A stretch of DNA of 64,000 bases from Microcoleus sp. BR0-C5 (GCA_036705045.1 JAUBTR010000019.1), one strand, 5' to 3'; shown: positions 29,171-47,221, counted from the stretch's first letter. Translations and numbers: made by a program. Notes: a model not told the origin generated them from the letters alone.

Positions 29171-29349
29171 GTTTACCTGTTAATTTTTTTTAAAAAAACT
29201 GAAAATCTCACGACAAACTTACTATCTATAGTCATCCTAAATGATTCAGATAAATTTGTAGGGTAGTGCCTTTCTTTGCCTACCCGCTATCTATCGGGCA
29301 ACCGGGCGTGGGATTGCCCCTACAATAATTATGCAAATGATGCGAGGAT

Positions 29350-29462
29350 TGCTATATAGTCATCCTAAATCATTTGTGAATTTCTTACTCCCTCCCTTTG
29401 GTAAGGGGAGGGTGGGGGTGGGGTAAAAAATTTACTACTTATTTAGGATTGCTATATGGTGC
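29350..29462. repeat. Second, inverted copy of the MITE at 28395-28507, with a partial third copy at about 29215-29245
   Basis: Reverse complement aligns to the left copy over about 105 bp. Confidence 0.8.
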
Positions 29463-29479
29463 GAAATGTGCACCTTACT

Positions 29480-30511: not shown

Positions 30512-33500
30512 GTCTCATCCCTCAATGTGTGTATTAAGTTTAGCAACTGTTCGTACTGAAAATTTTTAATGCAAGCTGCGCTCGCCCTAGCTAAGGGCTG
30601 ATTGATTTCGCGAATTTGATTGATGACTGTTTGCATCTGTTCTAAATCGAGGTTGCTAATGGCTTGCTGGAGATTGGCTACTAACTCTGGAGGTAATTCA
30701 GAAAAAGCAGTTTTTGTCAATACATTCACTTCATTTTCTGTTAAAGTGGGCGCAGCATTTAGTTCTTCAAAAACGAATTTCACCCCGATATATTTGTGCA
30801 GATCATCAAATATGTTTGCTTCTCTAAATGGTTTGCGAATAAAATCATCGCAGCCGATAGAAAGAATCATAGCTTTATCTTCCTCAAAACTACTGGCTGT
30901 TATGGCAATAATTGCTGTTGCTTGACTTTCGATATCCCCGCCGTTAACAATGGTGGATCTTGATGATACTTTGGCTTTAATTTGTTTGGTTGCTTCATAC
31001 CCATCCATCACCGGCATCCGCATATCCATAAAGATTAAGTGCGGCGAATATTGCTCCCACTTTTCTATTGCTTCCATCCCATTTGTGGCTTCGTAGACTT
31101 CAAAACCGATCGCGGAAAGCAGTTTAACTAGCAGTTGGCGGTTGTCAAAAGCGTCGTCTGCAACGAGAATTCGATAGCGGGGTTGATTGGGTGCGATCGC
31201 AATAACTCGTCTGGTTGGCTGTTCCCGTTGGCGATCGGCACTTTCAACTGGATTAACTTTAATGTCAAATTTGAAGATAGTACCGCCTCTAGCACGAGAA
31301 CTGACTGTCATTTCACCGCCCATTAACTGCACAAAAGAACGTGCGATCGTTAAACCTAATCCTGTTCCTTGTTGCGATTCTTCCCCGGTTTTGGTTTGAA
31401 CAAAAGCTTCAAATATCTTGTCTAATTCACTAGCCTCAATTCCATCTCCTGTGTCTTCTATCTCAAACCAGATTTGCTGAGCAAAATCCTGATATTTAAT
31501 TTTTACATAAATGCAGCCTTCGGAGGTAAATTTAATCGCGTTAGAAAGCAAGTTAATCAAGATTTGGCGCAATTTTATTTCATCAGTTTGCACATATTGG
31601 GGAACGTCTGGCATCCGCTCTACTAATAACTGCAATCCCTTATTTTGTGCCGGAAGTTGGAACATATTTTCGATGTCGTCCAGCAGGCGGTGGAGGTCAA
31701 AATTGGTCTGGTTGAGAGTCGTGCGTCCCGCTTCTATTTTGGACAAATCTAATACTTGGTTAATCAGTTCGAGCAAATGTTCTCCGCTGCGGGTGATAAT
31801 ACTCAGGTGTTCTTGCTGTTCCTGCAATAGGTTAGAAGAACGATTCAACAGTTGGGAAAAACCCAGAATTGCATTGAGGGGAGTCCGCAATTCGTGGCTC
31901 ATATTTGCCAGGAATGTGCTTTTTGCTCGGTTGGCTGCTTGTGCTGCGTCTTCGGCTCGTTGTCGCTCGATGATTTCTCGCTGAAGTTCGAGAGTGCGAT
32001 CGCTCACTTGCTGTTCTAAGGTGCGGTTGTAGTCGGCTAGCAGCTTTTCGGCTTGTTTGCGATCGGTGATGTCTTGAAATGTGGCGATCGCATAATTAAT
32101 TTTACCTGTTTCGTCAACAATTGGAGTGCTAGAAACCTCTAAAGAAACAATCTTATCAGGTCGGTGGAACTCGATATCATCTACTTTAACCGTTTCACCC
32201 GCCAAAGAACGCACGATTGGCATTTGTGCGGCGGGATATAACTCGTTAGTTCCCGCGAGATAAAGTTGACAAGCTTCTGCTAATTTCTCAGTATTTGCTT
32301 CGGGTATTGTGGGAATAGCACTTAGTTGATGTGCCGTCTGATTTGCGTAGGTAATTTGTCCGGTGGTGTCATGCACGGCTACCCCAATTGGCATAGCGTC
32401 GATAAATTGAGTCAGTCGGTTTTCGCGTTCCTTGACTTCCGCGTAGAGTTTAGCATTGGTAAGTGCGATCGCTGCTTGTCCAGATAGCAATTGTAATACT
32501 TCCAGGCGATCGGGCGTAAAAGCTTGTGTAGTGAGGTTATTTTCGAGATAAACAATAGCACTGAGTTGACCTTGATTCATCAAAGCGGCACACAAAATAG
32601 ACTTAGGCTGACGTGATTTGATGTAAGGATCATTCGTAAAGTTACCTTCACGAGTGGCATCATTTAACACTAAATTTTCTTTGGTTCTAGCGACATAATT
32701 GATAATAGCTTCGGAAAGTTCCGGGCAATTTTCAACAGGCTCAGATTGCAGCACTGTTATCTGTTCATCATTCATTACACCTTCAGCTTCAATCAGCAAT
32801 TTTTTCTCGGTTTCTAAAATTAAATATGCTTTTTGAGCGCCGACATTTTCAATCAAAATTTTCATCAATCTGGAGAGTAATTTATCCTGTACAATTTCCC
32901 CAGAAATGGCCTCGGAAGCTTTCATGACTGTAGCGATATCCAAGGAAGAAGTAGAACGGCTGCCCCTGGTTAATGTAGTGGTTGAAATGTTTTTATGTGT
33001 AGGTTGCTCGATGGTAAATAATTGCGGATATCGCGTTTCTAAATCTTTAACTTTAGCCACCGCACCCCAGAGTTGATAGCAGTAGCGAGCTTCCTGCATA
33101 TAAGCTTTGGCTGTTAATTCTTTACCCCTGGATAAATAGAACTTGGCAGCGAGTTCGTAAGCGAGGGCGGCTTCGTGGATGTACTCGTTTTCTTTGGCGA
33201 GGGAAATTGCGTGATCGTAATAGTCGATCGCTTCCACAACTTGCCCCAAAACTCGCGCTTTTTCAGCTTCAACTAGATAAAATTTATGTAAGTAATTCAT
33301 GCGAGCGTGATGCGCCCATACCTGCATTTTTTCTTGATTAGCATTAACCCGCTTGAGAGCATTTTCTTTTTCAAAATTTGAATAATCAGCAAATACACTT
33401 AAATGCGCTAGAGCATCATAAAAATGGAAGATAGGTATAGCTGTCATTCCCATCACACCATCTAAATATGGTTCTGCAACTACTGCATTTTTAGCAGCTT

Positions 33501-36500
33501 CCTGGGACTTTCCAAACAAATAGCACAATATCAACTTATTTAGATAAAGCAATAAAAGTCCTTGTCTATCGCTCAATCCTAGCTGAAGTGGCTGAAGTGG
33601 TAGAAATTTCTCTTCGTTATAAAACTCTCCTATTAGCTGAGTTGGATTGTCAGCCTTACCTAATAAGTTAAAAATAATTTGTAAATACATTGCTAACCAA
33701 GTCAAGCAAGTATTGTTTTTTTTATTGGTCGGTATTTCATAAAAATAAATTAACTCTTTTTCTAAGTCTTTAAGTTCACATCCTACTGAGTAGGCATTAA
33801 AACAATAATCAAAAGTAGAATAACCAATAAAATCTATATTCCCTGTTTCAACAGCGCAGAAATAAGCCTCTTTTAAAATTGACAAGCTTCCCTTAAGATG
33901 CTTTTTCCAATGCAATATATGATTGCCAAATATATCTAAAACTCCAGCCTTCAGGTATTTGGCATTTAATTTTTCTACTAACCTTAAACCTAATCTTCCA
34001 TATTTATAGCCACTTTCAATATCTTGTATAGTTGTACACAATATGACTCCGTAACTTGCGTAAGCAAAACTAGACTTAGGAGCATTGCCAAATTTAATAG
34101 ATAAATCAATCTGTGTTAACACAAGTGGCACTAATAATTCTGGAATACCTATATAGCCGATTCCTATCATTCCTCCCAGAATCGACATAGCTGCTAGAGA
34201 TTCTGGATCGGTCATTTTGGGCAGGTTAATTAAGTTGTAAGGTTCCGCTTTTATATATATGTTATTTGGAGATTGTGGCCAAACAACTCCTAGCAAATGT
34301 AGCACTTTTAATCCAAGGTTAAACCCTTCTTTAAACTTGCTTATTCTTATGCAATGTTCAATCTTTAACTCATATATTTGGACTTGCTCTAGAACAGTTT
34401 TAGCATTTTCTAGGACAAGGTTAGCTAAAGCTTCCATTTGCTCAAAATTCCCCAAACGGTAGGCTACCTGTGCGGCTTCTTGATGTAGTTGCAAGCTGAG
34501 CTGGTATTGCAGCAGCCAAGTGTTTACTGTCAGCAAATTTATTCCTGTTTGCAGATAGTTGAAAGCTGGCTGATAAGCAGTTGATGCTTTAGCCTTTTGA
34601 CCTGCTATTAGGTTTAATTCTGCCAGTTCATCTTTTTCTGGCTGAGAAGTAATCAACTCTAAGCCGAAATTTAATTGATTAACAATATCAAATATTTTTT
34701 CGTCTCGCTTGTCGATGGGAGTATTTTGCAGCAGCAGTTGTCCTATTTGTTTGTGGACGATCGGCTTATCCTGTTCATCAATCAGGGAACAAGCGGCTTG
34801 CTGAATTCTGTCATGAACAAACTTGTATTCTACGGATTGCGTACTGGGGAACTTCCCTGCAATTTCTAATTCCACATCTCCCATATTCCCCAGCAACACG
34901 ACTAAATTTTCAGCAACGGCTGCGTACAAATCCTCCGCCGTTTCTCCCACAGAATTTTTGCAAAGTGAGGCTAATGTTTTCAGATCGAATTGATTGCCAA
35001 TGCAGGCTGCTATCTTTAACGTTTCCTGCGTTTTCTCTGACTGCTGTTGAATTTTTTCAGCCATCAACTCGACAACATTATCAGTTAATCCCCTCGCTTG
35101 AATTTCCTCTAAATCCCATTCCCATCTAAAAGCGTTTAAGTCAAATTGTAATAGCCCTTCCGTATAAAGTGATTTGAAAAATTCATTCATAAAGAAAGGA
35201 TTACCGCCCGTTTTGAAAAACACTAACTCGCCAAGGGACTTGACTCTTGCTTCCGGGCAATTCAGGGCATCGCCAATCAGTTGAGTAACCGTGGCTAAAT
35301 CCAAAGGCGACAGAAAAATGCGATCGACACTAGCTCCATTTTTGATAATTTCTTCAATTGTCAAGTTTAACGGATGAGCGGGAGAAACTTCGTTATCCCG
35401 ATACGCGCCAATTAGAAACAAACCAGGTGTCCTACCGCTCATTAACAGTTCGATTAACTTGAGAGAAGCGCCATCAGCCCACTGCAAATCGTCTATAAAT
35501 ACAGTCAGAGGATGTTCTGGTTTAATAAAGACTGTAATGAAATTTTGAAACACTAAATTAAAACGATTTTGGCTCTCGCTCGGCCCTACCTCTGGTACGG
35601 CTGGTTGCTTGCCTATTATTAACTCTACTTCGGAAATTACATCAATTATGACTTGACCGTTTATCCCTAAAGCTGTGAATAATTTTTGCCGCCACTCTTG
35701 GAGTTTTGCTTCACTTTCAGCTAATAGTTGCTTGACTAATTCTCGCAGGGCGATGACAACAGCACTGTAGGGAATATTCCTCTGATATTGGTCGAATTTG
35801 CCGGAAATAAAATAGCCGCGCTTTTGAGTAATCGGTTTATACAGTTCTTGCACGATCGCGCTTTTGCCAATGCCAGAATAACCAGCAATCATAAACATTT
35901 GGCTTTGGTCGGAAGCTCGATCGAAAGCAGTTAAAATAGTTGCAATTTCTCGCTCCCTGCCGTAAAGTTTTTGGGGTATTTGAAACTTGTCGGAAATGTC
36001 TTGACAAGCTAACGGAAAAAGTGATATTGTATTATTGCTGTGCAATTGATTCAAGCATTCTTCTAAATCGGTTTTAATTCCCAAAGCACTTTGATACCGC
36101 TCCTCAGCATTTTTCCCCATCAACTTCATCACAATATCGGAAACAATTTGCGGAATTTCGGGATTCACCTGAGATGGAGATAACGGCTGTTTAGCGAGAT
36201 GACTGTGTACCAATTCCAGCACATCCTGAGTGTCAAAAGGCAATTTGTTTGTCAACAGTTCGTAAAAGGTAGCCCCCAGGGAATAAAAATCCGTGCGGTA
36301 ATCTAAACTTCGGTTCATTCTGCCGGTTTGTTCCGGCGACATATAAGCAAGAGTTCCCTCTAAAATGTTGGGATTTTTGATGGTGTAATTCTCGCGCGTT
36401 AACTGCGTGGAAATGCCAAAATCGATGATTTTGAGTTGTCCGTTAGCTGGATTGAAGACAATATTTGAAGGGTTAATGTCTTTGTGAATGATGTGGGTCC

Positions 36501-36894
36501 TGTGAATTTGTTGTAAACTTTCTGTAGTGGCGATCGCAATTCGCAAGAATTCTGCAATACTAAATTTTTGCTGCTGCATCCAAATTTTCAAGGATTCGCC
36601 GCCAAAATCCTCCACAAACATCACCAGCGTGTTTTGATATGGCTGCAAATCATAGGCTTTTATACAGCCACTCAGATTCAGAGATTGTGTAATTTTATAC
36701 TCTGTGCGATAGCGGGCGAGTTCTTGGGGTGTGGGATAATTTTCTTTGAGGATTTTGAGGACGACGGGGAGACAGTCGGGTTGTCGGAATGCTCGGTAAA
36801 CCAGGGAGTTTGCGCTTTCGTAGATGAGCTCTGTGACTTCAACGCCAGGAAAAGTGAGCATATTCAGCCTGCGGTCAACTTTGCAGTCGAACAT
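30508..36894 (-). CDS. Giant multidomain signalling protein: Ser/Thr kinase - AAA/NACHT-like ATPase - TPR-like - GAF - PAS - HisKA - HATPase_c - REC
   Basis: HKDINPSN catalytic loop and DFG; P-loop GYSGIGKS; H-box MSHELRTPLNAILGF; C-terminal receiver (LVADD...D). Confidence 0.8.
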   Translation of the reverse strand: MFDCKVDRRLNMLTFPGVEVTELIYESANSLVYRAFRQPDCLPVVLKILKENYPTPQELARYRTEYKITQSLNLSGCIKAYDLQPYQNTLVMFVEDFGGESLKIWMQQQKFSIAEFLRIAIATTESLQQIHRTHIIHKDINPSNIVFNPANGQLKIIDFGISTQLTRENYTIKNPNILEGTLAYMSPEQTGRMNRSLDYRTDFYSLGATFYELLTNKLPFDTQDVLELVHSHLAKQPLSPSQVNPEIPQIVSDIVMKLMGKNAEERYQSALGIKTDLEECLNQLHSNNTISLFPLACQDISDKFQIPQKLYGREREIATILTAFDRASDQSQMFMIAGYSGIGKSAIVQELYKPITQKRGYFISGKFDQYQRNIPYSAVVIALRELVKQLLAESEAKLQEWRQKLFTALGINGQVIIDVISEVELIIGKQPAVPEVGPSESQNRFNLVFQNFITVFIKPEHPLTVFIDDLQWADGASLKLIELLMSGRTPGLFLIGAYRDNEVSPAHPLNLTIEEIIKNGASVDRIFLSPLDLATVTQLIGDALNCPEARVKSLGELVFFKTGGNPFFMNEFFKSLYTEGLLQFDLNAFRWEWDLEEIQARGLTDNVVELMAEKIQQQSEKTQETLKIAACIGNQFDLKTLASLCKNSVGETAEDLYAAVAENLVVLLGNMGDVELEIAGKFPSTQSVEYKFVHDRIQQAACSLIDEQDKPIVHKQIGQLLLQNTPIDKRDEKIFDIVNQLNFGLELITSQPEKDELAELNLIAGQKAKASTAYQPAFNYLQTGINLLTVNTWLLQYQLSLQLHQEAAQVAYRLGNFEQMEALANLVLENAKTVLEQVQIYELKIEHCIRISKFKEGFNLGLKVLHLLGVVWPQSPNNIYIKAEPYNLINLPKMTDPESLAAMSILGGMIGIGYIGIPELLVPLVLTQIDLSIKFGNAPKSSFAYASYGVILCTTIQDIESGYKYGRLGLRLVEKLNAKYLKAGVLDIFGNHILHWKKHLKGSLSILKEAYFCAVETGNIDFIGYSTFDYCFNAYSVGCELKDLEKELIYFYEIPTNKKNNTCLTWLAMYLQIIFNLLGKADNPTQLIGEFYNEEKFLPLQPLQLGLSDRQGLLLLYLNKLILCYLFGKSQEAAKNAVVAEPYLDGVMGMTAIPIFHFYDALAHLSVFADYSNFEKENALKRVNANQEKMQVWAHHARMNYLHKFYLVEAEKARVLGQVVEAIDYYDHAISLAKENEYIHEAALAYELAAKFYLSRGKELTAKAYMQEARYCYQLWGAVAKVKDLETRYPQLFTIEQPTHKNISTTTLTRGSRSTSSLDIATVMKASEAISGEIVQDKLLSRLMKILIENVGAQKAYLILETEKKLLIEAEGVMNDEQITVLQSEPVENCPELSEAIINYVARTKENLVLNDATREGNFTNDPYIKSRQPKSILCAALMNQGQLSAIVYLENNLTTQAFTPDRLEVLQLLSGQAAIALTNAKLYAEVKERENRLTQFIDAMPIGVAVHDTTGQITYANQTAHQLSAIPTIPEANTEKLAEACQLYLAGTNELYPAAQMPIVRSLAGETVKVDDIEFHRPDKIVSLEVSSTPIVDETGKINYAIATFQDITDRKQAEKLLADYNRTLEQQVSDRTLELQREIIERQRAEDAAQAANRAKSTFLANMSHELRTPLNAILGFSQLLNRSSNLLQEQQEHLSIITRSGEHLLELINQVLDLSKIEAGRTTLNQTNFDLHRLLDDIENMFQLPAQNKGLQLLVERMPDVPQYVQTDEIKLRQILINLLSNAIKFTSEGCIYVKIKYQDFAQQIWFEIEDTGDGIEASELDKIFEAFVQTKTGEESQQGTGLGLTIARSFVQLMGGEMTVSSRARGGTIFKFDIKVNPVESADRQREQPTRRVIAIAPNQPRYRILVADDAFDNRQLLVKLLSAIGFEVYEATNGMEAIEKWEQYSPHLIFMDMRMPVMDGYEATKQIKAKVSSRSTIVNGGDIESQATAIIAITASSFEEDKAMILSIGCDDFIRKPFREANIFDDLHKYIGVKFVFEELNAAPTLTENEVNVLTKTAFSELPPELVANLQQAISNLDLEQMQTVINQIREINQPLARASAACIKNFQYEQLLNLIHTLRDET

Positions 36895-37177: not shown

Positions 37178-37567
37178 TTAATACATTAGCTTGCCATCGT
37201 TATTATTAATTCCCAGTAATGTGACAGAAGAATGTCGAGAATCACCGCTAGATGTGCGGCAATTGGCAGAAATTTGAGCTCCATTAATACCGAAGTCTGT
37301 GCAAGTTCGGTTGAACGTACTTGCTTCCCCAATATTGCCTTGTACCAGTTGTCCATTTTTATTATGAACCCCTTGAATGGTAATGGAAGTGCGTTGATTT
37401 GTACCATTTTTTTTCTCACAAGTTGCAGATAATTGAGCGCCATTGATTGAAAAATCCGTGCAACTGGTAGCAAAGGTACTTGCTTTTTGAGCATGGGTCG
37501 GCTGCTGGAAGATGGAGAGCGATAGTACGATTGAAGCAGATAATCCAGACAATTTAATTGAGTTCAT
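37178..37567 (-). CDS. Secreted cyanovirin-N homology (CVNH) lectin
   Basis: Signal peptide, then two tandem repeats (FATSCTDFSINGAQLSATCEKKNG... / FNRTCTDFGINGAQISANCRTSSG...) with the CVNH Cys spacing. Confidence 0.6.
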   Translation of the reverse strand: MNSIKLSGLSASIVLSLSIFQQPTHAQKASTFATSCTDFSINGAQLSATCEKKNGTNQRTSITIQGVHNKNGQLVQGNIGEASTFNRTCTDFGINGAQISANCRTSSGDSRHSSVTLLGINNNDGKLMY

Positions 37568-38021
37568 GGTCTTTTTTATGATTTACTATTTTCAGCGTAA
37601 GATAATAACCCTAAAAAGCTTCTAGCTTTTAGTTGAGTAGAAAATTAGCTAAATAGTCAGCTTGCGACTCAGCCTCTGTGAGAAAAAATCCTAAACTTTT
37701 GGCTAGGTGCCGCCTTAAAATATAGGCTTTGACCGCTTGAATAAGGTCAGGCATGGCACGCAAGCTTTAGTCATTGGAAGAGAGTGTTGCCAGTATATAT
37801 TTGTGTGGATCTTCGATACCTAGCCAAAAGTTCAGGTAATCTCCCCAACTAAAGGTGAGTTAAAGCTCTGTTGTTTTTATAGGTTCAAAACTAAACTTGG
37901 AGCTAGCGACTTTATCCGGGTAATTTCATAAACTAAATTTAGGCCAAGACCAGCACTAGGTTAGCTGGAAGAAAACAAATAAGGAGTTACTTCCTTAACA
38001 ATTAAATCAGGAGCAAATCTC

Positions 38022-38252
38022 ATGTCTTTTGAATTTGAAGGGGTCAATCAGTTTTCTGCAGAAGTTGAGCAAGATTCTGCCGTGCAGCAGCAACAGCCGC
38101 CAGCCAATTCTGTTGCTGAAGAATTGAACGATACGGAATTAGATGCGATTGCAGGCGGTCATATGTTATGGGATTATATGGAGCAGTGGCGTTTAGATAC
38201 AGACAATCCTGATGATACTAAGAACACACCACCTCTGATGGCAGGATTCTGA
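38022..38252 (+). CDS. Double-glycine-leader peptide precursor A (core HMLWDYMEQWRLDTDNPDDTKNTPPLMAGF)
   Basis: Leader ends ...ELNDTELDAIAGG followed by H. This is the classical GG cleavage motif recognised by C39-peptidase ABC transporters. Confidence 0.6.
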   Translation: MSFEFEGVNQFSAEVEQDSAVQQQQPPANSVAEELNDTELDAIAGGHMLWDYMEQWRLDTDNPDDTKNTPPLMAGF

Positions 38253-38478
38253 CAACTCACCACAGTTGAAGTGGACTTAAGAACAATCTGACTTGCAAAG
38301 AATGCCTGTATGGCCTATAAAATCGCGAACGGAAATTCGTCAAAAAGCGTTAAGTCAACCGTATTGAATTTTAACTCAGTAGCGGGTAAAAAGGTTGGAT
38401 AGCAGGCAACTTTGCTAGGAGTTGGTTCGATCGCTTTTGGAAGCAAAATTCACTAATTATGTCAGGAGGAAACATCAA

Positions 38479-38727
38479 ATGGAAACCAACAATCAATTTT
38501 TGCAAGAAGTATCGCCCCTGTTGTCCCAAATCGCAGCATCAGAATCGGTCAACTCAATCGATGAAGAATTGAACGAATTGGAATTAGAGGCGATCGCGGG
38601 TGGCCATTCCAATATGGCCAATCGCGCTCGGGCTGCGGGTATTCCTGTGATCACAGGCAGCGGGCCAAGGCCGAAATTTGCTAGTGGTTTCTCCATGTAC
38701 GGAGAGGATAAAAAGAGCGTCTTCTAA
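38479..38727 (+). CDS. Double-glycine-leader peptide precursor B1 (core HSNMANRARAAGIPVITGSGPRPKFASGFSMYGEDKKSVF)
   Basis: AGGAGG RBS 8 bp upstream of ATG 38479; leader METNNQFLQEV...IDEELNELELEAIAGG. The ORF track's longer 38422 start lacks an RBS. Confidence 0.65.
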   Translation: METNNQFLQEVSPLLSQIAASESVNSIDEELNELELEAIAGGHSNMANRARAAGIPVITGSGPRPKFASGFSMYGEDKKSVF

Positions 38728-38780
38728 CTAGAAGCGATCGAGCTTCTGCTGAGTTCAGCCACATAAGGAGGAAACATCAA

Positions 38781-39041
38781 ATGGAAACCAACAATCAATT
38801 TTTGCAAGAAGTATCGCCCCAGTTGTCCCAAATCGCAGCATCCGAATCGGCCAACTCAATCAATGAAGAATTGGACGAATTGGAATTAGAGGCGATCGCG
38901 GGTGGCCATTCCAATATGGCCAATCGCGCTCGGGCTGCGGGTATCCCTGTGATCACAGTCAGCGGCCCAAGACCTAATTTTGGTCCAGGCCCGGCTATGA
39001 ATAAGGAATTCTTGGAAGCATTAAGGAATTTCGATCGCTAA
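38781..39041 (+). CDS. Double-glycine-leader peptide precursor B2 (tandem paralogue of B1 with a divergent core C-terminus)
   Basis: Near-identical RBS, leader and first 20 core residues to B1. The core tail diverges (…VSGPRPNFGPGPAMNKEFLEALRNFDR). Confidence 0.65.
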   Translation: METNNQFLQEVSPQLSQIAASESANSINEELDELELEAIAGGHSNMANRARAAGIPVITVSGPRPNFGPGPAMNKEFLEALRNFDR

Positions 39042-39123
39042 CAGAAGAAATGATCGGCTTGTAACTAGAAGCGATCGAGCTTCTGCTGAGTTTAAACACT
39101 CAAGGACAAAACATCAATGGAAA

Positions 39124-39155
39124 CCCAGTTTCTTAAATAAACTGGGTTTTTATTT
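39124..39155 (+). terminator. Rho-independent terminator (CCCAGTTT-cttaaata-AACTGGG + TTTTTATTT) after a truncated third precursor start
   Basis: Stem-loop plus T-tract read directly. It is preceded by ATGGAAACCCAGTTTCTTAAATAA (METQFLK-stop), a remnant of another precursor copy. Confidence 0.6.
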
Positions 39156-39301
39156 ACCTCATATCACGTATATTTGAATCGATTATACTTCTTATAAAGG
39201 CGGTTTTTGCCAACCGAAATCGACTAAAAATAATGATTTTATCAACCCGCTTTTACCTCTAGAGCGCATCTAAATTCTGATTATATAAATATTTAAAAAA
39301 T

Positions 39302-39442
39302 ATGGATGCAAGACAGCCATTTTACCTGATGCAGCAAGCTCCCGATATGGGTAACACTACAATATTTAGCGTTGGCTTAGTTATCGCCTGCTTGCTATTG
39401 CTAATTTTGTTGTGGTTGCCCGATTTGCTGACAAAAGAATAA
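39302..39442 (+). CDS. Candidate 46-aa single-pass membrane peptide (MDARQPFYLMQQAPDMGNTTIFSVGLVIACLLLLILLWLPDLLTKE)
   Basis: Short ORF, not in the 60-aa track, between the precursor genes and the exporter. The hydrophobic core is typical of small immunity or accessory proteins. Coding status is unproven. Confidence 0.25.
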   Translation: MDARQPFYLMQQAPDMGNTTIFSVGLVIACLLLLILLWLPDLLTKE

Positions 39443-39682
39443 GCCTCATTCTGCTCGATTCATAGTGATGGCTGTAGGGGCGGGTTCGCCAAAATCTCGA
39501 ACACCGATCGAACAATTCCATAAACCCGCCCTCCCCCGCCTTGATTTACATCAACATTTTATCCTATAAATTAGCAGTTGATTTGTATTGTTGGTGGGTG
39601 GGGGCGGGTTTACGAGCTTGTTGATTTTTACCAGATATTGTTGGTGAACCCGCCCCTAGGGGTGTGTGAAATCGCGCTTACA

Positions 39683-42649
39683 TTACTCTAACTGTCGCTC
39701 AACTAATCTAGCAAACAATCCTCCCTGTTCGATCAATTCCTCAAACGAACCCACCTCCACCAAACGGCCTGCTTCAATTACATAAATGCGATCGGCATTG
39801 CGAACCGTACTCAGGCGGTGGGCGATGACAACTCGCGTCACATTCAACTTATCCAAACTCTCAGTAACGATCGCCTGCGTGCGGTTGTCCAAAGCACTCG
39901 TAGCTTCATCCATCAGGATAACCTTTGGTTTGACAACCATCGCGCGGGCAATTAACAATCTCTGCCGCTGTCCTCCCGAAAGATTCGTGCCGCCCTCGCT
40001 GACAACCGTGTGCATTCCCATCGGCATTTGTTCGATATCGGCGGCTAAACCGGCCATTTGCGCCGCTTCCCAAGCTTCCTCCTGCGTTACCATCGCCCCG
40101 CAGGTAATATTGTCAAACATTGAACCAGCATTAATTCTGCCGTTTTGCAGCACTACTCCTAACTGCCGCCGCACAGCTTGAACGTCGAGGCCTGCTAAAT
40201 CTTGATTGTCGTAATAAACAGTGCCGCTTTGTGCTATTTCAAACCCCAATAACAGCCGAAATAATGTTGATTTGCCACTACCAGACGGCCCGACGATCGC
40301 GATAAATTCCCCCGGTTGAATATTGATGCTGACATCATCTAAAATTGGGGGCCCGTCCTCCCGGTAGCGGAAAGTTGCCCTATCGACAGTAATTTGACCT
40401 TGCAAGCGGCCGGGATCGGCTTTTGTCGGGTCAGATTCCGGGATGCCCTGGACGATCGGTTTGGCTCGCTCCCACAGCGGTACAATTCCTAAAATATCAG
40501 TTAGGGTATTGCTCAAATCTGTGACGCCAGAAAGAAAGGTGCCGAAGGCGGAATTAAAAGCAAGAAAGGTTCCCATATTCAGTCCGCCTCCTCCTGTTTG
40601 AGGAGTTTGCATGAACACAATTGCAAACCAAAACATCAGAATAGAACTTACTAACGGCAGCGCTTCATTAAATACTGAAACACTGTCGTCAATTCGTTTA
40701 ATTCCTGTTCTTAGCTTGATTTGCTGGCTGTATTTTTTCGCCCAAGCTGCAAACGCTCGCCCTTCTGCAGCAGCTACCCGCAGCTTTGATACTCCGTTAA
40801 TTAGTTCTACTGTCAGCCCGTTAATGTCGCCTTCTCCTGTTTCCATCTGCCGCTCTTTTGGGATTAAGAGCAAGCTGGATGTAACTGTTACTATAACCGC
40901 AATAAGAGTTAAACCAATTCCGACTAAAGCCAGTGGCAGGCTGTAAATAAACATCAGCCCCAAATTCAGCAGGGAAAATATCGCGCTCAAAAGTGTCCGC
41001 TGCGTCGTGCCGCTGAGTTGGGCGCGAATTTGATTAACAGCTAATAAGCGAGTTAGCAAGTCGCCAGAAGAATAGGTGCGAAAAAACGCCGGTTTTAATC
41101 TCAGCAATCGATCCCAAACTGCTGGCTGGAGAGTGCCGCTGGCAACATTTTCGATCCGCAGCGTCAGAATGGTTTGGGCGATGCTAAATACAGCCCGTCC
41201 GATCGCCGCAACTAACAATACCAGCCCTAACTGCCACAGTAACAAACGATCGCTGTCAGGAATAGCATCATTGACCAAAATCGAGGTAGCTTGCGGCGTC
41301 ACCATCCCCAGCAGCGTTCCCAATATCCCCAGCCCGAAAGCAGCGATCATGTCTTTTTCGTAGCCCTTCGTCCCGAAGCGAAACAGTTCCGCAGCGTTGC
41401 GAACTAATAGCGGCAGCGGCCGGTAAAACATGAGAGTTTCTGGCGACAACTCTTGGGCGATTGCTTTAGTTACCCGTTGGCGGCTGCGGTCGATCGGATC
41501 GAACAAAGTATAAGGATCGTCCTTACCGGGCAACAAAGCTACAGGTCGATTGTCGGACTTTGTATAAGCCAACAGCGGGCCGCAGTTCTGCCGCCACCAA
41601 TATCCAACCAGCAGCACGCGGCGGGTGCGAAATTGGGACGATCGCGCGATCGCCTCCATCGGATCTTTAACTCGGCTGAAATCTTCGGAACCCGCCGGGG
41701 GATTGACTGTTATCCCTTGTGCCTTACCTACAGCCCCAGCAGCGATTAACAGCGGTGTTCCTTCCTCAGACAACACGATTTTCCGGGGATGCAGCACCTC
41801 GGTTAACTCTCCCAAAGCTGTCTGAGTGACTTGGCAGTTTAGCTGTTCGCGTTCCTGAAAGCGGCGGAATTCCTCGGCTTTTTGCCGGGAAACCAGCAAA
41901 TTCAAGCAGCAGCAGAAATACTCGTGCAGCAAAGCTAAACTCGCGCGCAGCCAGTCGGCATTTTCCACTTCTGCTGTTGAGAAAATTTGCACCTCAACTT
42001 CCCCGGATGCCACCAGCAACATATTCCCAGCCAGGGGAAACGCTGGGGAAGCGGAATTTAACTTCAATTCCCCGACACTCGCATCGCCCGACGAGACGCG
42101 CACCCAGACAACTGTTTCCGGCGGCGATCGCAGAATTTGACCGGGAATTAGCGATATCTGCTGCGAGGCTGCTACAACCCCAGTTTCTGGGGCAACTTTT
42201 TCCTCCGGCACGCGCGGCGGATCTATCCCGTAGGGAATCGCCCGTTCTCCCAAATGCTGTATCCACCCTTCCACAAGGGCGATGTTTTTGCCGTCACCAG
42301 CAGCCACTAAAGCGGCACAATCTGCGATCGCGATCTGTTCCAGTTCCGTTTCCGCGATTGCGATCGCCAGAAGTCCCCAACCTGGTTTTGAAATTTCTCC
42401 CCCCCTTGTAGGGGCGGTGCCCCCGTGCCCGCCCTGGTTGGGCGTGGTAGCAGCGCCAAACAAAGCCTCGCCTGCACTGACGCCGAACAGATAATAGCGG
42501 TTGCCCGCCGGCTTCTCACTTTGTATCTTGGCTGCAAAAACTGCGATCGCGCCCGATCGAACAATCCACACCTGATGCGGGTCATTCAGCAGCAGCGGTT
42601 CATTTCCTTTAATTCGGTGCAGTTTCTTAACAGGATTTAGATCGAGCAT
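39683..42649 (-). CDS. ABC transporter with N-terminal cyclic-nucleotide-binding-like domains (NHLM bacteriocin-system type, permease + ATPase fused)
   Basis: Walker A GPSGSGKST, signature LSGGQRQRL, Walker B ILMDEATSALD, six-TM ABC exporter core, and about 400 aa of N-terminal cNMP-like region. Confidence 0.75.
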   Translation of the reverse strand: MLDLNPVKKLHRIKGNEPLLLNDPHQVWIVRSGAIAVFAAKIQSEKPAGNRYYLFGVSAGEALFGAATTPNQGGHGGTAPTRGGEISKPGWGLLAIAIAETELEQIAIADCAALVAAGDGKNIALVEGWIQHLGERAIPYGIDPPRVPEEKVAPETGVVAASQQISLIPGQILRSPPETVVWVRVSSGDASVGELKLNSASPAFPLAGNMLLVASGEVEVQIFSTAEVENADWLRASLALLHEYFCCCLNLLVSRQKAEEFRRFQEREQLNCQVTQTALGELTEVLHPRKIVLSEEGTPLLIAAGAVGKAQGITVNPPAGSEDFSRVKDPMEAIARSSQFRTRRVLLVGYWWRQNCGPLLAYTKSDNRPVALLPGKDDPYTLFDPIDRSRQRVTKAIAQELSPETLMFYRPLPLLVRNAAELFRFGTKGYEKDMIAAFGLGILGTLLGMVTPQATSILVNDAIPDSDRLLLWQLGLVLLVAAIGRAVFSIAQTILTLRIENVASGTLQPAVWDRLLRLKPAFFRTYSSGDLLTRLLAVNQIRAQLSGTTQRTLLSAIFSLLNLGLMFIYSLPLALVGIGLTLIAVIVTVTSSLLLIPKERQMETGEGDINGLTVELINGVSKLRVAAAEGRAFAAWAKKYSQQIKLRTGIKRIDDSVSVFNEALPLVSSILMFWFAIVFMQTPQTGGGGLNMGTFLAFNSAFGTFLSGVTDLSNTLTDILGIVPLWERAKPIVQGIPESDPTKADPGRLQGQITVDRATFRYREDGPPILDDVSINIQPGEFIAIVGPSGSGKSTLFRLLLGFEIAQSGTVYYDNQDLAGLDVQAVRRQLGVVLQNGRINAGSMFDNITCGAMVTQEEAWEAAQMAGLAADIEQMPMGMHTVVSEGGTNLSGGQRQRLLIARAMVVKPKVILMDEATSALDNRTQAIVTESLDKLNVTRVVIAHRLSTVRNADRIYVIEAGRLVEVGSFEELIEQGGLFARLVERQLE

Positions 42650-42943
42650 AGCTAGTAATTGGCGATTAGTAATATCACGTCGGGCAGGGGTTTAAAGCCT
42701 TGCCTCAAAGAAGACAGTGCGATCGAATCGATCGGGCTAATCCACAGATCCTAGGAGTGATTAAAATCCCCGTCTCATAGCTAAAGTCGGTTAAAACCGA
42801 CTGAATAGCTAAGACTCCATAGCGAACACTGAATAGCCCTATCAAACCATCGCTCATTTCAGTCCTCTTGAGAGGACTTTAGCTATTAGACAGGGAATTC
42901 ATTCCCTGGCGGACTGTCGGGCTGGCTACTGTATTTCTGCTGT

Positions 42944-45154
42944 TTATTGTTCGTTCCCAACCAAAAGAGCATAAGCTCCTCCCAGCTTTTGCAACTCCTC
43001 ATGAGTGCCTCTTTGAACAACTTTCCCCCCTGCGAGCATAATAATTTCATCGCAATCTCGAATCGTACTCAAACGGTGAGCAACCACAATACAAGAAGTA
43101 CCGCGACGCCTTAAATTGCGATCGATAATTAACTCTGTTTCAGCATCCAGAGCACTCGTTGCTTCATCCAGCACCAACACCGCTGGATTCCTCACTAATG
43201 CCCTGGCAATTTCCAAGCGCTGCCGCTGTCCGCCGCTCATATTTGTTCCCCCTTCATTGAGTTGAGCATCGTATCCTCCCGGCATATTCAAGATAAGTTC
43301 GTGAATTGCCGCATCAATGCACGCTTGCACTAAATCTGCTTCCGGTACTGTCGGGTCCCAAAGCGTCAGGTTTTCCCGAACAGTGCCAGCAAATAGAAAT
43401 ATCTCTTGTTCGACCATTGCCAGCGAATTTGCTAGAATAGAACGGGGAATCAATTTGCGAGGAACCCCGTCAAATAAAATTTCGCCATTCATTGGTTCGT
43501 AAAGCCCGGTAACAAGTTTGGCAATAGTAGATTTACCAGAACCGCTGCCCCCCACTAACGCTACCCGCTGACCAGGTTTTACACTTAAGTTTAAGTCTTC
43601 AATTAGCGGCGCTTCCAAGCGGCTGTAGCCAAAACTGACACCGCGCAATTCAATGCTTCCTTGCAGGTAAAAAGCATCTAGTTCGATGGTGATTTGGTTG
43701 TTTTTACTATTAAAAGTATCGCGGTCTGCTTCTGGATCTATCGGGTTTTGCAGAACGTCATCAAGTCGGTTTAAATCGGCTTCTAATTCTTGCAGAGTGC
43801 TGCCAAAATTGACGAGATTGTTAACAGGTCGGAGGAATTGTTGAGTCAGACTTTGATAGGCAATTAACATCCCGATACTCAAACCGCCGTTCATTACCCG
43901 CAAGCCCCCGACAACTAAGATAGCAGTTGCAGCTAATGCCGTTAAAAATGCTGGTAATATTGATAAAATTTGAGTGGGCAAAGCCAATTCTTGCTGGGCG
44001 TTGCTCATTTTGGCATAGTATCCGGCAAACTTAGAAAATAAATCGAATTCTAAACCGCTAGCTTTGACAGTTTCTATAGATTGAATGCCTGCAATTGCAG
44101 CACCGCCAACCTTACCTGTTTCCTGAGCTAATCGGGTGTTAGCATCGACGCGGCTGCGGGATAAAGATTGCAGTGCCAAAAAGTTTAAGGCTGCAAAAAC
44201 GGCCGCAACACTGGTCAATACCCAGTCGTACATAACCATAATTATCGCATAGAAAACCATCATCACCGCGTCGATCGCAGTTGCAGCAAGTTTCCCCGAT
44301 AAAATTTCAGCAACCTTGTCATTAACTTGGCAGCGACTGCTAATTTCACCTGCAAACCGCTGGGCGTAAAATCCCACAGGCAAGCGCAAAGTATGCCAGA
44401 GAAACTGTCCCGACATCGAAATCGCAAGCTTGTTTGCCAGCCGCCGCAAATAGAAAAGTCGCATTCGCGCTAGCAGCCCTTGAATAGCCGCGGCAAACAA
44501 CATTCCTAATATTAAGGATCGCAGCCACTCCTGACGATTTTCGACGAGAATTTCATCTACAAAAATTTGGGTAAATGCCGCCCCAGCTAAACGGGGAACA
44601 GTCAGTAATAAACCAGCAATTAAACAAAATGCGATCGCCCAACGCGAACTTTGCAATCGGGAATCTAAAGCACGGGCAATACTCGGTTTTTTTCCGCCCT
44701 TTTTAAACTCCTGCCCCGGCTCAAAAGTCAAAACAACGCCAGTATAAGCAGACTTAAATTCTTCTAGAGAAACAGTCCTCGGCCCCGATGCGGGGTCGTT
44801 GAGATAAACGCGCTTTTTCTTCATCCCCTCAACCACCAAAAAGTGATTGAAATTCCAAAAAACAATAAAAGGTGGCGGTACAGCTTTCAACTCTTCGACA
44901 GTTTTTTTAAACCCTTTAGCATCTAAGCCGTAAATTCGGGCTGCTTTAAGGATATTAGAAGCTTTACTGCCATCGCGAGAAACGCCACACTCGCTCCGCA
45001 ATTGAGCTAAAGGTACCGGGTGTTCGCAGTAACTCAAAATAATTCCTAAAGCAGCAGCACCGCATTCTACTGCTTCCATTTGTAACAGGGTGGGAGTGCG
45101 AACTCGCCTTAATTTGCGCGGTGTAAAAAAGTTGTGAATCCAGGGTATTTTCAT
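42944..45154 (-). CDS. Peptidase-C39-domain ABC transporter (bacteriocin processing/export, permease + ATPase fused)
   Basis: N-terminal C39 papain-like domain with catalytic Cys in EAVECGAAALGII; Walker A GGSGSGKST; signature MSGGQRQRL. Confidence 0.85.
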   Translation of the reverse strand: MKIPWIHNFFTPRKLRRVRTPTLLQMEAVECGAAALGIILSYCEHPVPLAQLRSECGVSRDGSKASNILKAARIYGLDAKGFKKTVEELKAVPPPFIVFWNFNHFLVVEGMKKKRVYLNDPASGPRTVSLEEFKSAYTGVVLTFEPGQEFKKGGKKPSIARALDSRLQSSRWAIAFCLIAGLLLTVPRLAGAAFTQIFVDEILVENRQEWLRSLILGMLFAAAIQGLLARMRLFYLRRLANKLAISMSGQFLWHTLRLPVGFYAQRFAGEISSRCQVNDKVAEILSGKLAATAIDAVMMVFYAIIMVMYDWVLTSVAAVFAALNFLALQSLSRSRVDANTRLAQETGKVGGAAIAGIQSIETVKASGLEFDLFSKFAGYYAKMSNAQQELALPTQILSILPAFLTALAATAILVVGGLRVMNGGLSIGMLIAYQSLTQQFLRPVNNLVNFGSTLQELEADLNRLDDVLQNPIDPEADRDTFNSKNNQITIELDAFYLQGSIELRGVSFGYSRLEAPLIEDLNLSVKPGQRVALVGGSGSGKSTIAKLVTGLYEPMNGEILFDGVPRKLIPRSILANSLAMVEQEIFLFAGTVRENLTLWDPTVPEADLVQACIDAAIHELILNMPGGYDAQLNEGGTNMSGGQRQRLEIARALVRNPAVLVLDEATSALDAETELIIDRNLRRRGTSCIVVAHRLSTIRDCDEIIMLAGGKVVQRGTHEELQKLGGAYALLVGNEQ

Positions 45155-45213
45155 CGGCTATAAGGCTGAAACCCATAATAAATTTTGCTGGTATTCAAGT
45201 CTCGATCCCCCTA

Positions 45214-45293
45214 AATCCCCCTGATTGTTGGGGAGTAGGGGTTGACTTTGACTGCTCTTGTCCCCCCCTTCTTAAGGGGGGTTAGGGGGGATC
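45214..45293. repeat. MITE-like element with GATCCCCC(T)...GGGGGGATC termini; a second copy lies at 63707-63785
   Basis: Two copies share TCTTGTCCCCCCCTT...GGGGGNTAGGGGGGATCTAGA. Confidence 0.75.
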
Positions 45294-45433
45294 TAGACTT
45301 CGATATAAACAAGAGAGACGGTCGGTTTAATAGTAAGGTGCGTTAGACCCGAAATCCTCGATAATCATTCTAGAACTTCGTCTGACGCACCCTACAAGTC
45401 GATGGGAGTGTGACAGTTGGCCTTAGTCCTAAA

Positions 45434-47221
45434 TTAATAAACTCCTGTCAAAGACCGAAAAATAGGAATCACGTAAGAAATCGGCGCTAACTGCCCGATT
45501 TGAACCCTAACGAGCGCCGTAGTACCGGGGGAAATCTTGAGAGGAGGCCCGTTCGATGAAGACCATTTGTAACCGCTGATAGTGTTCGGATCTTGTTGCA
45601 ATTCCACAAATATTTGCACGGGAGCACCGCCACCAGCTATGTTTTTTGCGATGCTGTCAGCCAAATTTTCATTGCCGATAATTGACGACATATCTTGATT
45701 AGTAACCGGAAAAGGAGAAACTTGGGTTACTTTGCCGACAATGCCGCCGTAGCGTTCCCGCTTGACGACGCTAGGGGTAACTTGTACGGTCATTCCCGGT
45801 TTAATTTGCTTGCCGTCTCTGTCAGCAAAATAAACAAGACTGACCATTTTTTCGCGAGAATTTTTAGATTCAACTGTCCCGATCCTTGTACCGATGTTCA
45901 GCATTTGACCTGCAACGGCGCTAACTTCTAAAACGCGGCCGTCGTATTGGCTGGTAATTTTGCTGTCGGCTGTCAACTGATTCTGCAAGTGGGCAATCTT
46001 GCGTTTAACTTCCTGAATTTGATTTGTTTGGGCGATCGACTTCTCTAAATCTTGTTGAGCTAGTTTGACCGCTTGGGTTCCCATGTCTTTAATCTTAGTT
46101 TTGATTTCATCAATTTTGTTCAGGTTTTGCAGGTACTCCCGTTCGGTGTTACTTTTCTGAACTTTAAGTTCTTGGAGGTTGTTTTTAATTTCGTTAAGGC
46201 GGTTGAGATTTTGCAGGTACTCTCGTTCGGTATTGGTAGCTTCTACCTTGAGTTGCTGCCGGCTGTTTTTGAGGTCGTCAATTTTATTGAGATTTTGCAG
46301 GAATTCGCGATCGCTATTGGTTTTCTGAACGTCGAGTTCCTTTAACTGCGTTTCAATATCCGCCAATTGCATCTGAGAGTCCGCGAATTCCTGTCTCGCT
46401 TGCAGCATTACATCCTCGCTAATCGCCCTCTCTTGTTCGTAAAGAACGCGGCGAGTTTCAAACCGCTGCTGCAAAGTTTCCACCAAAGAAGTGATGTGCT
46501 GTTTTCGCTGCAAAAGACTGTCCCGTTTTTTGGCGATCGCGGCCAGAGTTTGCTGCCGCAATATCGGCGCAACTTGTTCTCGCCGCAAACTTTCTTCCAA
46601 ACTTTGGCGTTTTTCTGCTAATGCTGTCAGAGTTTGCTGCCGCAGTACCGGCGCAATTTGTTCGCGGCGCAAACTTTCTTCCAAACTTTGGCGTTTTTGC
46701 TCTAATGCCGCCATACTTTGCTGGTGCAATATCGGTGCAACTGACTCCCTATTCAAGCTTTCTTGAAGGTCTTTTTGCTGCTGTTCTAGGGTTTTTAATT
46801 CCAGGGCAATTTGCTGTTTTTGCAGCTTATTAGTATCTTTTTTTTGCCCTTGCAGTTGGGCTAACTTTGCTTTTTCTTGCTCTAACTGCTGCTTGAGGTC
46901 TAGTTTATCAATTCTACCGATTTCCTGACCCCGTTTAACAACATCTCCAGGCTTGATATTTAGCTTTACCAATTGACCGGAACTAGCAGCTTGAAATTGC
47001 ACGACTCGGCGGGGCAGAAGCAACACGCCTTGACCGGAAACAGTCAGCGGAATTCGCCCGATCGCACTCCAAACCCCCGCAGCAGCAACTAAACAGCCAA
47101 TTGCAGTTAGTGGCAGCCACGATCGAGGACTAACCACCTGCATCATTTGGTCGAGGCGTTCCGGCGAAGATAAGCGATCGATCGCTTCAGTAGTGAAAAG
47201 TTTGTTTTGTTTTACCTGCAT
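45434..47221 (-). CDS. HlyD-family periplasmic adaptor/secretion protein with expanded coiled-coil
   Basis: N-terminal TM, long coiled-coil with two internal 3x tandem repeat blocks, and a C-terminal beta-barrel HlyD domain. Confidence 0.8.
   Translation of the reverse strand: MQVKQNKLFTTEAIDRLSSPERLDQMMQVVSPRSWLPLTAIGCLVAAAGVWSAIGRIPLTVSGQGVLLLPRRVVQFQAASSGQLVKLNIKPGDVVKRGQEIGRIDKLDLKQQLEQEKAKLAQLQGQKKDTNKLQKQQIALELKTLEQQQKDLQESLNRESVAPILHQQSMAALEQKRQSLEESLRREQIAPVLRQQTLTALAEKRQSLEESLRREQVAPILRQQTLAAIAKKRDSLLQRKQHITSLVETLQQRFETRRVLYEQERAISEDVMLQARQEFADSQMQLADIETQLKELDVQKTNSDREFLQNLNKIDDLKNSRQQLKVEATNTEREYLQNLNRLNEIKNNLQELKVQKSNTEREYLQNLNKIDEIKTKIKDMGTQAVKLAQQDLEKSIAQTNQIQEVKRKIAHLQNQLTADSKITSQYDGRVLEVSAVAGQMLNIGTRIGTVESKNSREKMVSLVYFADRDGKQIKPGMTVQVTPSVVKRERYGGIVGKVTQVSPFPVTNQDMSSIIGNENLADSIAKNIAGGGAPVQIFVELQQDPNTISGYKWSSSNGPPLKISPGTTALVRVQIGQLAPISYVIPIFRSLTGVY

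Follow-up and report, generated by a model that had tools for sequence, protein, structure and literature searches.

Introduction

The three-gene NHLM export cassette was described in 2010 by Haft et al., along with the "mix-and-match" of leaders, enzymes and transporters, and in their account the conservation of leaders reflects handling by the transporter (PMC2887384). Among cyanobacterial clusters, Wang, Fewer and Sivonen defined in 2011 a group V, in which a short ATP-binding cassette (ABC) transporter with a C39 peptidase domain, a CAP_ED-like second ABC protein without peptidase and an HlyD protein accompany an array of precursors with double-glycine (GG) leaders; 16 of 37 precursors belong neither to the NHLP nor to the N11P type, and in Prochlorococcus MIT9313 group V exporters serve a distant stand-alone LanM enzyme (PMC3140520). 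Unmodified products are on record as well, since the EbfG1-4 proteins of Synechococcus elongatus PCC 7942 have GG leaders, and are exported unmodified by a C39 transporter, PteB (PMC4997328). Here we analyse a peptide-export locus found at 37.1-47.3 kb of a 64,000-nucleotide stretch of the chromosome of Microcoleus sp. BR0-C5 (GCA_036705045.1 JAUBTR010000019.1), hereafter called the window. Its nearest homologues are all from Microcoleus, and it was compared with a set of 24 loci, 15 of which are sister Microcoleus loci (L001-L015).

The locus is a member of the cyanobacterial group V / NHLM clusters exporting GG peptides, and not a new kind of system. On balance, we regard it as a pared-down peptide-export island, which probably releases linear, most likely unmodified peptides of 30-44 residues cleaved by a C39 peptidase. 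The short C39-ABC protein, the second ABC protein without peptidase, the HlyD protein and the array of GG precursors are shared with group V, and the window cluster is similarly free of LanM; the CAP_ED-like nature of the second ABC protein is derived here from a predicted fold only. Differences concern the leaders, which appear to be internally deleted Nif11 leaders, and the three types of core peptide, all unnamed in PMC3140520, PMC2887384, NCBIfam and Pfam. A bimodular CAP_ED protein, usual in group V, is moreover missing from the window, and present in two related loci (L016 and L023). Compared to the NHLM cassette, the trio of exporter genes is complete, but the co-occurring NHLP or Nif11 precursor is missing in the window, and is found in related loci. 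An initial reading of the DNA made without database searches (the sequence-only reading) had taken an NHLM trio devoid of NHLP, Nif11 and modification enzymes as a novelty. This view has to be abandoned, because sister loci host Nif11 precursors in 6 and NHLP plus LanM in 2 of 15 cases, and group V had already been defined (PMC3140520).

Results

The precursors are encoded by three small open reading frames (ORFs), pre1 (38022-38252), pre2 (38479-38727) and pre3 (38781-39041), all on the plus strand, and convergent with the exporter genes, which lie contiguous on the minus strand. Each is preceded by a GGAG/AGGAGG site located 7-9 nt 5' of the ATG, the start of pre2 being taken as the ATG at 38479 and not the upstream TTG at 38422. 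The acidic GG leaders noticed at the outset are thus present as described, each with a Shine-Dalgarno site. They have a net charge of about -10, measure 46 aa in pre1 and 42 aa in both pre2 and pre3, and share the C-terminal module ELxxxELxAIAGG; the pre1 leader ends with ELNDTELDAIAGG, those of pre2 and pre3 with ELNELELEAIAGG and ELDELELEAIAGG. When the 64 kb were searched in six frames for the GG consensus quoted in PMC3140520, ELx3E(I/L)x2(I/V)xG(G/A), exactly three matches were retrieved, all at the pre1-3 leaders, and none across 30 shuffles. Residues at positions -4, -7 and -12 are I, L and L, hydrophobic as C39 recognition needs: LahT150 cleaves substrates retaining only the last 13 leader residues, and reads hydrophobic residues at these same positions (PMC6363468).

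The pre1 core is 30 aa long, acidic (charge -4) and rich in Trp and Asp, with a predicted unmodified mass of 3639.0 Da. The cores of pre2 (40 aa, beginning with HSNMANRARAAGIPVITGSGPRP, predicted mass 4240.8 Da) and pre3 (44 aa, 4778.4 Da) are basic, with charges of +3 to +4. All three are hydrophilic, with a grand average of hydropathy of about -0.4 to -1.1, start with His and contain no Cys, as had been noted. pre2 is identical to P0002 from Microcoleus sp. BR0-C5. Homologues of pre3 fall into 15 protein clusters, all the named members of which are Microcoleus. pre2 and pre3 form a direct repeat of 217 nt, with 95% identity and a 302-nt period, and to judge from it they are a recent tandem duplication. 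A fourth copy is cut off: it starts with the ATG at 39118, reads METQFLK and then a stop codon, and overlaps a hairpin ahead of a T-run (39116-39154, plus strand; repeat D3, inverted repeat I4), which probably marks the end of the precursor operon. Promoter and terminator scans of the locus gave no signal above background, and an Rfam scan revealed no RNA element within or beside it.

The three exporter genes pass the NCBIfam cut-offs, and the trio is of the NHLM type as originally proposed. ABC2 (39683-42649, 988 aa), a permease/ATPase without peptidase domain, scores 997.2 bits with TIGR03797 (cut-off 709.4); ABC1 (42944-45154), a peptidase-containing ABC transporter (PCAT) made of C39 peptidase, permease and ATPase, scores 1127.7 bits with TIGR03796 (cut-off 853.3), and matches Pfam Peptidase_C39 at 1.4e-35; the HlyD-type periplasmic adaptor (45434-47221) scores 359.1 bits with TIGR03794 (cut-off 156.2). 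Residues 15-729 of ABC1 align to PCAT1 (4ry2) with an E of 8.6e-106. Its C39 domain holds Gln25, Cys31, His104 and Asp120, spaced as the catalytic residues of LahT, which are Gln21, Cys27, His101 and Asp117 (PMC6363468). The cyclic nucleoside monophosphate (cNMP)-binding domain attributed to the 988-aa protein is partly borne out. Residues 1-300 (window 41750-42649) have no Pfam domain even at E<=5, and hhalign against a genuine cNMP-binding neighbour protein was negative. Yet, the AlphaFold model of this region (mean predicted local distance difference test 71.7) shows two modules, each a beta-barrel plus helix, which Foldseek relates to the tandem cyclic-nucleotide-binding (CNB) domains of PKA-R/PKG with an E of about 1e-7. 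With moderate confidence, the N-terminus of ABC2 can be modelled as a tandem CNB-like, or CAP_ED-like, fold; nucleotide binding is doubtful, because the Arg of the phosphate-binding cassette is, by eye, seemingly missing. The adaptor has a lengthened coiled coil: at 46542-46742 the gene carries 2.4 copies of an 84-nt (28-aa) tandem repeat, and the protein measures 595 aa, compared to 539 aa in orthologues of other named genera.

Next to the 3' end of ABC2, and convergent with it, lies TM46 (39302-39442, plus strand), an ORF of 46 aa (MDARQPFYLMQQAPD...LLLLILLWLPDLLTKE) with one predicted transmembrane segment. It is found in all 15 sister loci, 80-96% identical, and homologues reside beside the same trio in Floridanema (L021, 50%) and in a metagenome locus carrying LanM and Nif11 (L023, 61%). 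Two copies flank an inserted cassette in L012. Conservation next to the trio makes TM46 a possible, so far unrecognised, small accessory or component of the NHLM exporter. A role as peptide-specific immunity protein was considered, and is unlikely: TM46 is 80-96% conserved whatever the peptides, and tracks the exporter into other genera. The spacer separating TM46 from ABC2 (39475-39660) contains nested GC-rich inverted repeats, with GGGGCGGGTT-type arms of 18-30 nt, and may represent a small repeat element.

The leaders had been described as unlike both NHLP and Nif11 leaders. Profile searches, which placed the transporters well above threshold, support this in part. pre1 scores 12.3 bits with the Nif11 model TIGR03798, below the cut-off of 32.3, and over model positions 53-68 only; pre2 and pre3 do not match it, Pfam Nif11 (PF07862) matches none of the three at E<=1, and no match to the NHLP leader was found with either TIGR03793 in NCBIfam or NHase_alpha in Pfam, where the NHLP precursors of L004 and L009, used as positive controls, match at about 1e-15. 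Alignments nonetheless connect the short leaders with both ends of Nif11 leaders. A normal Nif11 leader of 86 aa is located directly upstream of the first short-leader gene in 6 of the 15 sister loci; it starts with MSFEFE(S/G)VN(H/Q)FFQEVSQD and ends with ...SGELSDSELEAVAGA. In a multiple alignment, the short leaders match these same-locus Nif11 leaders at both ends, and a single gap of about 40 residues opens in between; the N-terminal NQFxQEV motif is retained, and so is the 13-residue module for C39 recognition. On this evidence, the short leader appears to be a Nif11-type leader minus some 40 internal residues. All members of the family retain the last 20 residues or so, and conservation of the N-terminal motif is weaker; in types B and C the N-terminal likeness to Nif11 is short (NQFxQEV), and of no established statistical significance. 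By the sequence, the retained C-terminus is the part that a C39 domain needs. N11P leaders matching TIGR03798, such as ProcA, thus share with the window leaders the GG-proximal module ELxDxELEAxAGG, the N-terminal NQFxQEV/QD, the locus and the trio, and differ in length (about 80-86 aa, as opposed to 42-46 aa), in having the central Nif11 domain, and in the association with Cys-rich cores and LanM, both missing in the window. Literature searches yielded nothing specific on the short-leader family in Microcoleus.

Analysis of pre1 suggests how the window reached its present state. The region upstream and the first 11 codons correspond nearly base for base to the start of the L001 Nif11 gene, and the switch to a type-A short leader takes place at the common AATCAGTTTT (Asn-Gln-Phe) motif. 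At the protein level, 17 of 24 N-terminal residues are identical to those of the L005 Nif11 precursor (BLASTP, E 2e-8). pre1 is therefore a chimera, in which the 5' end of a Nif11 gene is joined to a type-A leader. Given the junction and the match to sister loci, the strain lost its Nif11 precursor by a deletion between two related 5' motifs, and the fusion is what the deletion of a gene still held by sister strains left behind.

Modification enzymes are missing, as the sequence-only reading had stated for the flanking DNA, and the statement can be extended to the whole 64 kb: Pfam searches of every ORF outside the locus that measures 110 aa or more, excluding those nested in longer ones, found no LanM, YcaO, radical-SAM or other enzyme for RiPPs (peptides made by the ribosome and then modified), and the LanM domains DUF4135 and LANC_like were not found within the 64 kb. 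The six-frame motif search recognized only the three short leaders, and no NHLP or Nif11 precursor in the window. The window has no LanM gene and no Cys in the cores, and is not a LanM cluster. Lanthionine cannot be formed by cores lacking Cys.

A profile search of 1.84 billion representative proteins (E<=0.001) listed 28 matches, about 25 of which are small GG-leader peptides. Members with a named source come from Microcoleus, Phormidium ambiguum, Capilliphycus, Lyngbya, Limnoraphis, Floridanema and an unclassified cyanobacterial metagenome-assembled genome. Intact precursor ORFs with ribosome-binding sites are found in all 24 loci, spread over several genera. Short-leader genes converge on the orthologous ABC2/C39-ABC/HlyD trio in every locus whose contig extends past the peptides, except L002, which is rearranged after TM46. 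The trio is 87-98% identical to that of the window within Microcoleus, 60-80% in other genera.

Cargo genes vary from locus to locus, and occupy fixed slots. The slot between peptides and exporter is empty in the window. At this same site two sister loci (L004 and L009) carry one or two NHLP precursors, a LanM of 1163 aa, a WelO5-like protein and a GNAT; NHLP and LanM are found at the homologous site of L021 as well. In L012 the slot is filled by a LuxR regulator, a CHAT-TPR protein and a second Nif11 precursor. Nif11 precursors reside in L001-L003, L005, L007 and L012, and outside the sister loci in L016, L020, L022 and L023. The slot between kinase and peptides hosts a GT1 (UDPGT-family) glycosyltransferase in 11 of the 15 sister loci, among which L002-L004, L006, L009 (L009:8361-9623) and L011-L015, and a cyanovirin-N homology (CVNH) lectin in L001, L010 and the window. 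CVNH and GT1 never occur together. The window lectin gene (37178-37567, minus strand) matches Pfam CVNH at 4.2e-11 and cyanovirin-N chains in PDB with E up to 8e-11, and scores 75 bits with the NCBIfam mannose-binding lectin model (cut-off 80); its N-terminus resembles by eye a Sec signal, and the product is plausibly secreted. The identification of the lectin thus holds, while its inclusion in the system does not: found in only 2 of 15 sister loci, where it alternates with GT1, CVNH was rejected as functional partner, and comparison of the loci points to variable cargo of the slot rather than to a conserved part of the locus. Since sister alleles carry canonical NHLM cargo, the window would be a strain-specific, minimal state of a variable island conserved in Microcoleus and other Oscillatoriales.

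A few additional features of these loci are worth recording. Some Nif11 cores are very short, as FFRW in Limnoraphis (L020:10647-10898) and GDKPRDDSK in UBA11372 (L022:12857-13123), and look more signal-like than antibiotic-like. Next to the trio of Phormidium, Capilliphycus, Limnoraphis and Floridanema lies a protein about 490-520 aa long in which Pfam recognizes no domain above cut-off (L016:4662-6227, L018:17240-18784, L020:17868-19340, L021:6332-7897; 57-90% identity); the Microcoleus loci lack it. A set made of CHAT-TPR, TPS-domain and Pkinase-DUF8082 proteins recurs near the trio in three genera.

Cores are not hypervariable in the sense of prochlorosins, and can be sorted into three recurrent types. 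Type A cores are rich in aromatic residues, and frequently end with AGKK(A/V)G; pre1 is a divergent acidic member. Type B is described by (M/I)RTITVSGxKPxF...SYFGK. Type C, to which pre2 and pre3 belong, carries xSDMADRARAAG as an N-terminal extension, after which comes a B-like IPVITxSGPRP segment. The types recur from genus to genus, as seen for xxTITVxGxxP. The possibility of a second cleavage site in type C (...RARAAG|IPVIT, the point where type B cores start) was considered; cleavage by C39 is unlikely there, the hydrophobic residue at -4 being absent. His is the +1 residue only in the window, L001 and L006, and is replaced by C, R, M, I, L, Y or F elsewhere. His-first, Cys-free cores, true of the window, are therefore a local feature and not a family trait. 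A Gly-rich core with GxxxG, similar to those of class IIb, is carried by the Nif11 precursor that the window strain has lost.

Substitution rates (Nei-Gojobori, pooled pairs) vary sharply along the locus. The ratio of nonsynonymous to synonymous substitutions (dN/dS) is 0.10-0.21 in the exporter genes (dN 0.015-0.035, dS about 0.15), which are under strong purifying selection, 0.34 in TM46 (dN 0.068, dS 0.20), 0.5-0.6 in short leaders (dN 0.13-0.26, dS 0.26-0.45) and 0.73-0.96 in cores (dN 0.38-0.71, dS 0.47-0.74), values which for the cores are inflated by the mixing of paralogues and the hard alignment of short sequences, so that diversifying selection and relaxed constraint are inseparable here. 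Amino-acid evolution is 10-40 times faster in the cores than in the exporter, and sets of cores differ from strain to strain.

Next to the peptide locus, a phosphorelay (28538-36894) comprises a 2128-aa Ser/Thr-kinase/STAND/GAF/PAS/hybrid histidine kinase, a hybrid histidine kinase and a LuxR-type regulator. The large kinase gene (30508-36894, minus strand; domains Ser/Thr-kinase/AAA_16/GAF/PAS/hybrid histidine kinase) encodes a segment, residues 800-1200 approximately, free of Pfam domains. In 11 Microcoleus genomes this segment falls into four classes, 33-49% identical to each other and 82-98% identical within, in proteins otherwise 80-97% identical. dS is 0.46 over the whole gene, as opposed to about 0.15 in the exporter genes. 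The segment resembles a sensor cassette exchanged within a STAND-type protein. Co-diversification of kinase and peptides, as expected of a receptor-ligand pair, was rejected, as the four allele classes do not track the peptide sets.

Elsewhere in the window, the region 59041-59327 (plus strand) scores 108 bits with Rfam 5_ureB_sRNA. It lies antisense to the gene for the urease alpha subunit (57725-59482, minus strand), and conserved urease coding sequence may be all that the model picks up. An orphan Cas_csx3 gene (55093-55434, plus strand) adjoins an IS605 OrfB/TnpB-like gene (55581-56429, minus strand), and a Csx3-like gene is located near the peptide locus of Capilliphycus (L018:2846-3151).

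Discussion

From gene identities, leader motif, relation to Nif11, synteny and rates we infer how the peptides may be cleaved and exported, whether they are modified, and what they may do. The three precursors would be translated with a mini-Nif11 leader, made of the first 20 and the last 20 or so residues of a Nif11 leader, and lacking the middle. The last 13 leader residues (L-12, E-8, L-7, I-4, G-2, G-1) would dock in the C39 domain of ABC1, which would cleave after GG, and the core would exit through ABC1, ABC2 and HlyD, and an outer-membrane channel plausibly encoded elsewhere. The exported cores would be linear and 30-44 residues long. They are likely unmodified because most of the Nif11 domain is missing, Cys is absent, and no tailoring enzyme is encoded in the 64 kb. 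GG leaders and an NHLM trio with no enzyme nearby leave the early suggestion, that the locus exports unmodified or trans-modified peptides, a reasonable one.

Several observations weigh against the view of a simple island for unmodified peptides. In sister loci, the same peptide types have LanM, GNAT, WelO5-like and GT1 genes as neighbours, and an enzyme acting in trans from beyond the 64 kb could, by analogy with known systems, modify the peptides. A core dN/dS near 1 would equally fit relaxed constraint. The hydrophilic cores, with pre1 at charge -4, do not resemble pore-forming class II bacteriocins, and no immunity-like gene co-varying with the peptides was seen among the loci, TM46 being constant.

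According to an alternative view, pre1-3 are RiPP precursors, modified in trans by an enzyme residing outside the window (such as a free-standing LanM/ProcM-like synthetase, glycosyltransferase or splicease), and then exported. The N-terminal Nif11 motif still present in the leader, the conserved Thr/Ser/Pro positions and occasional YG motifs of type B and C cores, and the GT1 next to the peptides in 11 of 15 Microcoleus loci are in line with it, as are the NHLP+LanM+GNAT cassettes flanking the same peptide types in L004, L009 and L021, and the service offered by group V exporters to a distant LanM in Prochlorococcus (PMC3140520). But the Cys-free cores of the window exclude lanthionine, the Nif11 domain has lost about 40 residues, and the 64 kb provide no enzyme. 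Further, core types stay the same with or without LanM or GT1, and LanM-bearing loci contain obvious substrates in their Cys-containing NHLP cores. We consider modification in trans unlikely. At the opposite extreme, the peptide genes could be functionless leftovers, decaying in a locus that lost its real Nif11 or NHLP cargo. The Nif11 precursor was deleted in the window strain, a fourth copy is truncated, and core dN/dS is 0.73-0.96, all of which decay would explain. However, the peptides are to be regarded as real genes because the GG module is invariant, leader dN/dS (0.5-0.6) is below 1, and ORFs with their ribosome-binding sites are intact in all 24 loci from several genera; conservation of three core types between genera, xxTITVxGxxP included, and the strong purifying selection acting on the exporter (dN/dS 0.10-0.21) likewise make decay highly improbable.

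The peptides could alternatively be secreted signals, pheromones or induction factors, sensed by the neighbouring phosphorelay at 28538-36894. GG-leader induction peptides are usual in class II bacteriocin loci of Gram-positive bacteria. The kinase module flanks every Microcoleus locus whose contig reaches that side, and its hypervariable segment of about 400 aa comes in four discrete allele classes. In Capilliphycus, a 2102-aa protein with the same domain set lies beside the trio; the locus covers 323 of its C-terminal residues, and over these it is 64% identical to the window kinase. In Phormidium, Floridanema and UBA11372 the peptide has a Pkinase-DUF8082 gene upstream. Adjacency is however weak evidence, since such kinases are very common in filamentous cyanobacteria, and no convincing membrane-spanning or extracytoplasmic segment was seen in the kinase. 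Moreover, the window and L010 have kinases of the same class (96% identity) and different peptides, and in turn L010, L002 and L008 have peptides in common across three kinase classes. A signal read by this kinase is, in our opinion, quite improbable.

We return to the pared-down island exporting unmodified peptides. Class II bacteriocin loci resemble it in the GG leader, the PCAT, the occurrence of several peptides per locus, tandem duplication and rapid divergence, and weak, sub-threshold matches to TIGR01847, TIGR03949 and Bacteriocin_IIc were obtained. In contrast, leaders in the window have double the length, the cores are hydrophilic, that of pre1 being acidic, and the locus has neither a co-varying immunity gene nor a membrane histidine kinase. 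A pore-forming bacteriocin role fits poorly. The EbfG/PteB system offers a different parallel: there too small GG-motif proteins are encoded in an array, cleaved and exported by a C39 protein and apparently unmodified, as is proposed for the window peptides. EbfG proteins have a non-antibiotic role in the biofilm matrix, and HlyD is unmentioned in PMC4997328. An EbfG-like matrix role is, by analogy, possible. Fast core evolution and strain-to-strain differences lead us to guess at interactions between strains, such as competition or recognition between filaments. Strain-level competition or recognition is our best guess, and is in line with the variable presence of the peptides, their duplication and their rapid divergence. 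One may go further, and imagine that the mini-Nif11 leader marks an unrecognised class of unmodified peptides widespread in Oscillatoriales, with three conserved core folds shuffled as a recognition, or pherotype, code for the interaction of filaments, TM46 as fourth component of the exporter, and the STAND-kinase in the response pathway. We regard this scenario as a long shot.

According to literature searches, the putative internal deletion of a Nif11 leader, the cassette-wise swap of cargo and TM46 next to the exporter appear to be undescribed. About 25 clusters of "hypothetical proteins" of 60-90 aa from filamentous cyanobacteria may now be read as C39-exported peptides with a cut-down Nif11 leader. 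This natural deletion gives a hint of the parts of a leader on which the transporter may depend. The locus adds an instance of mix-and-match, in which one exporter would serve, within one genus, Nif11 peptides, NHLP lanthipeptides and short-leader peptides, and cassettes are swapped at fixed slots. In soil crusts and river mats Microcoleus is a keystone organism, and secreted peptides evolving this fast are candidates, and no more, for mediating interactions among its strains.

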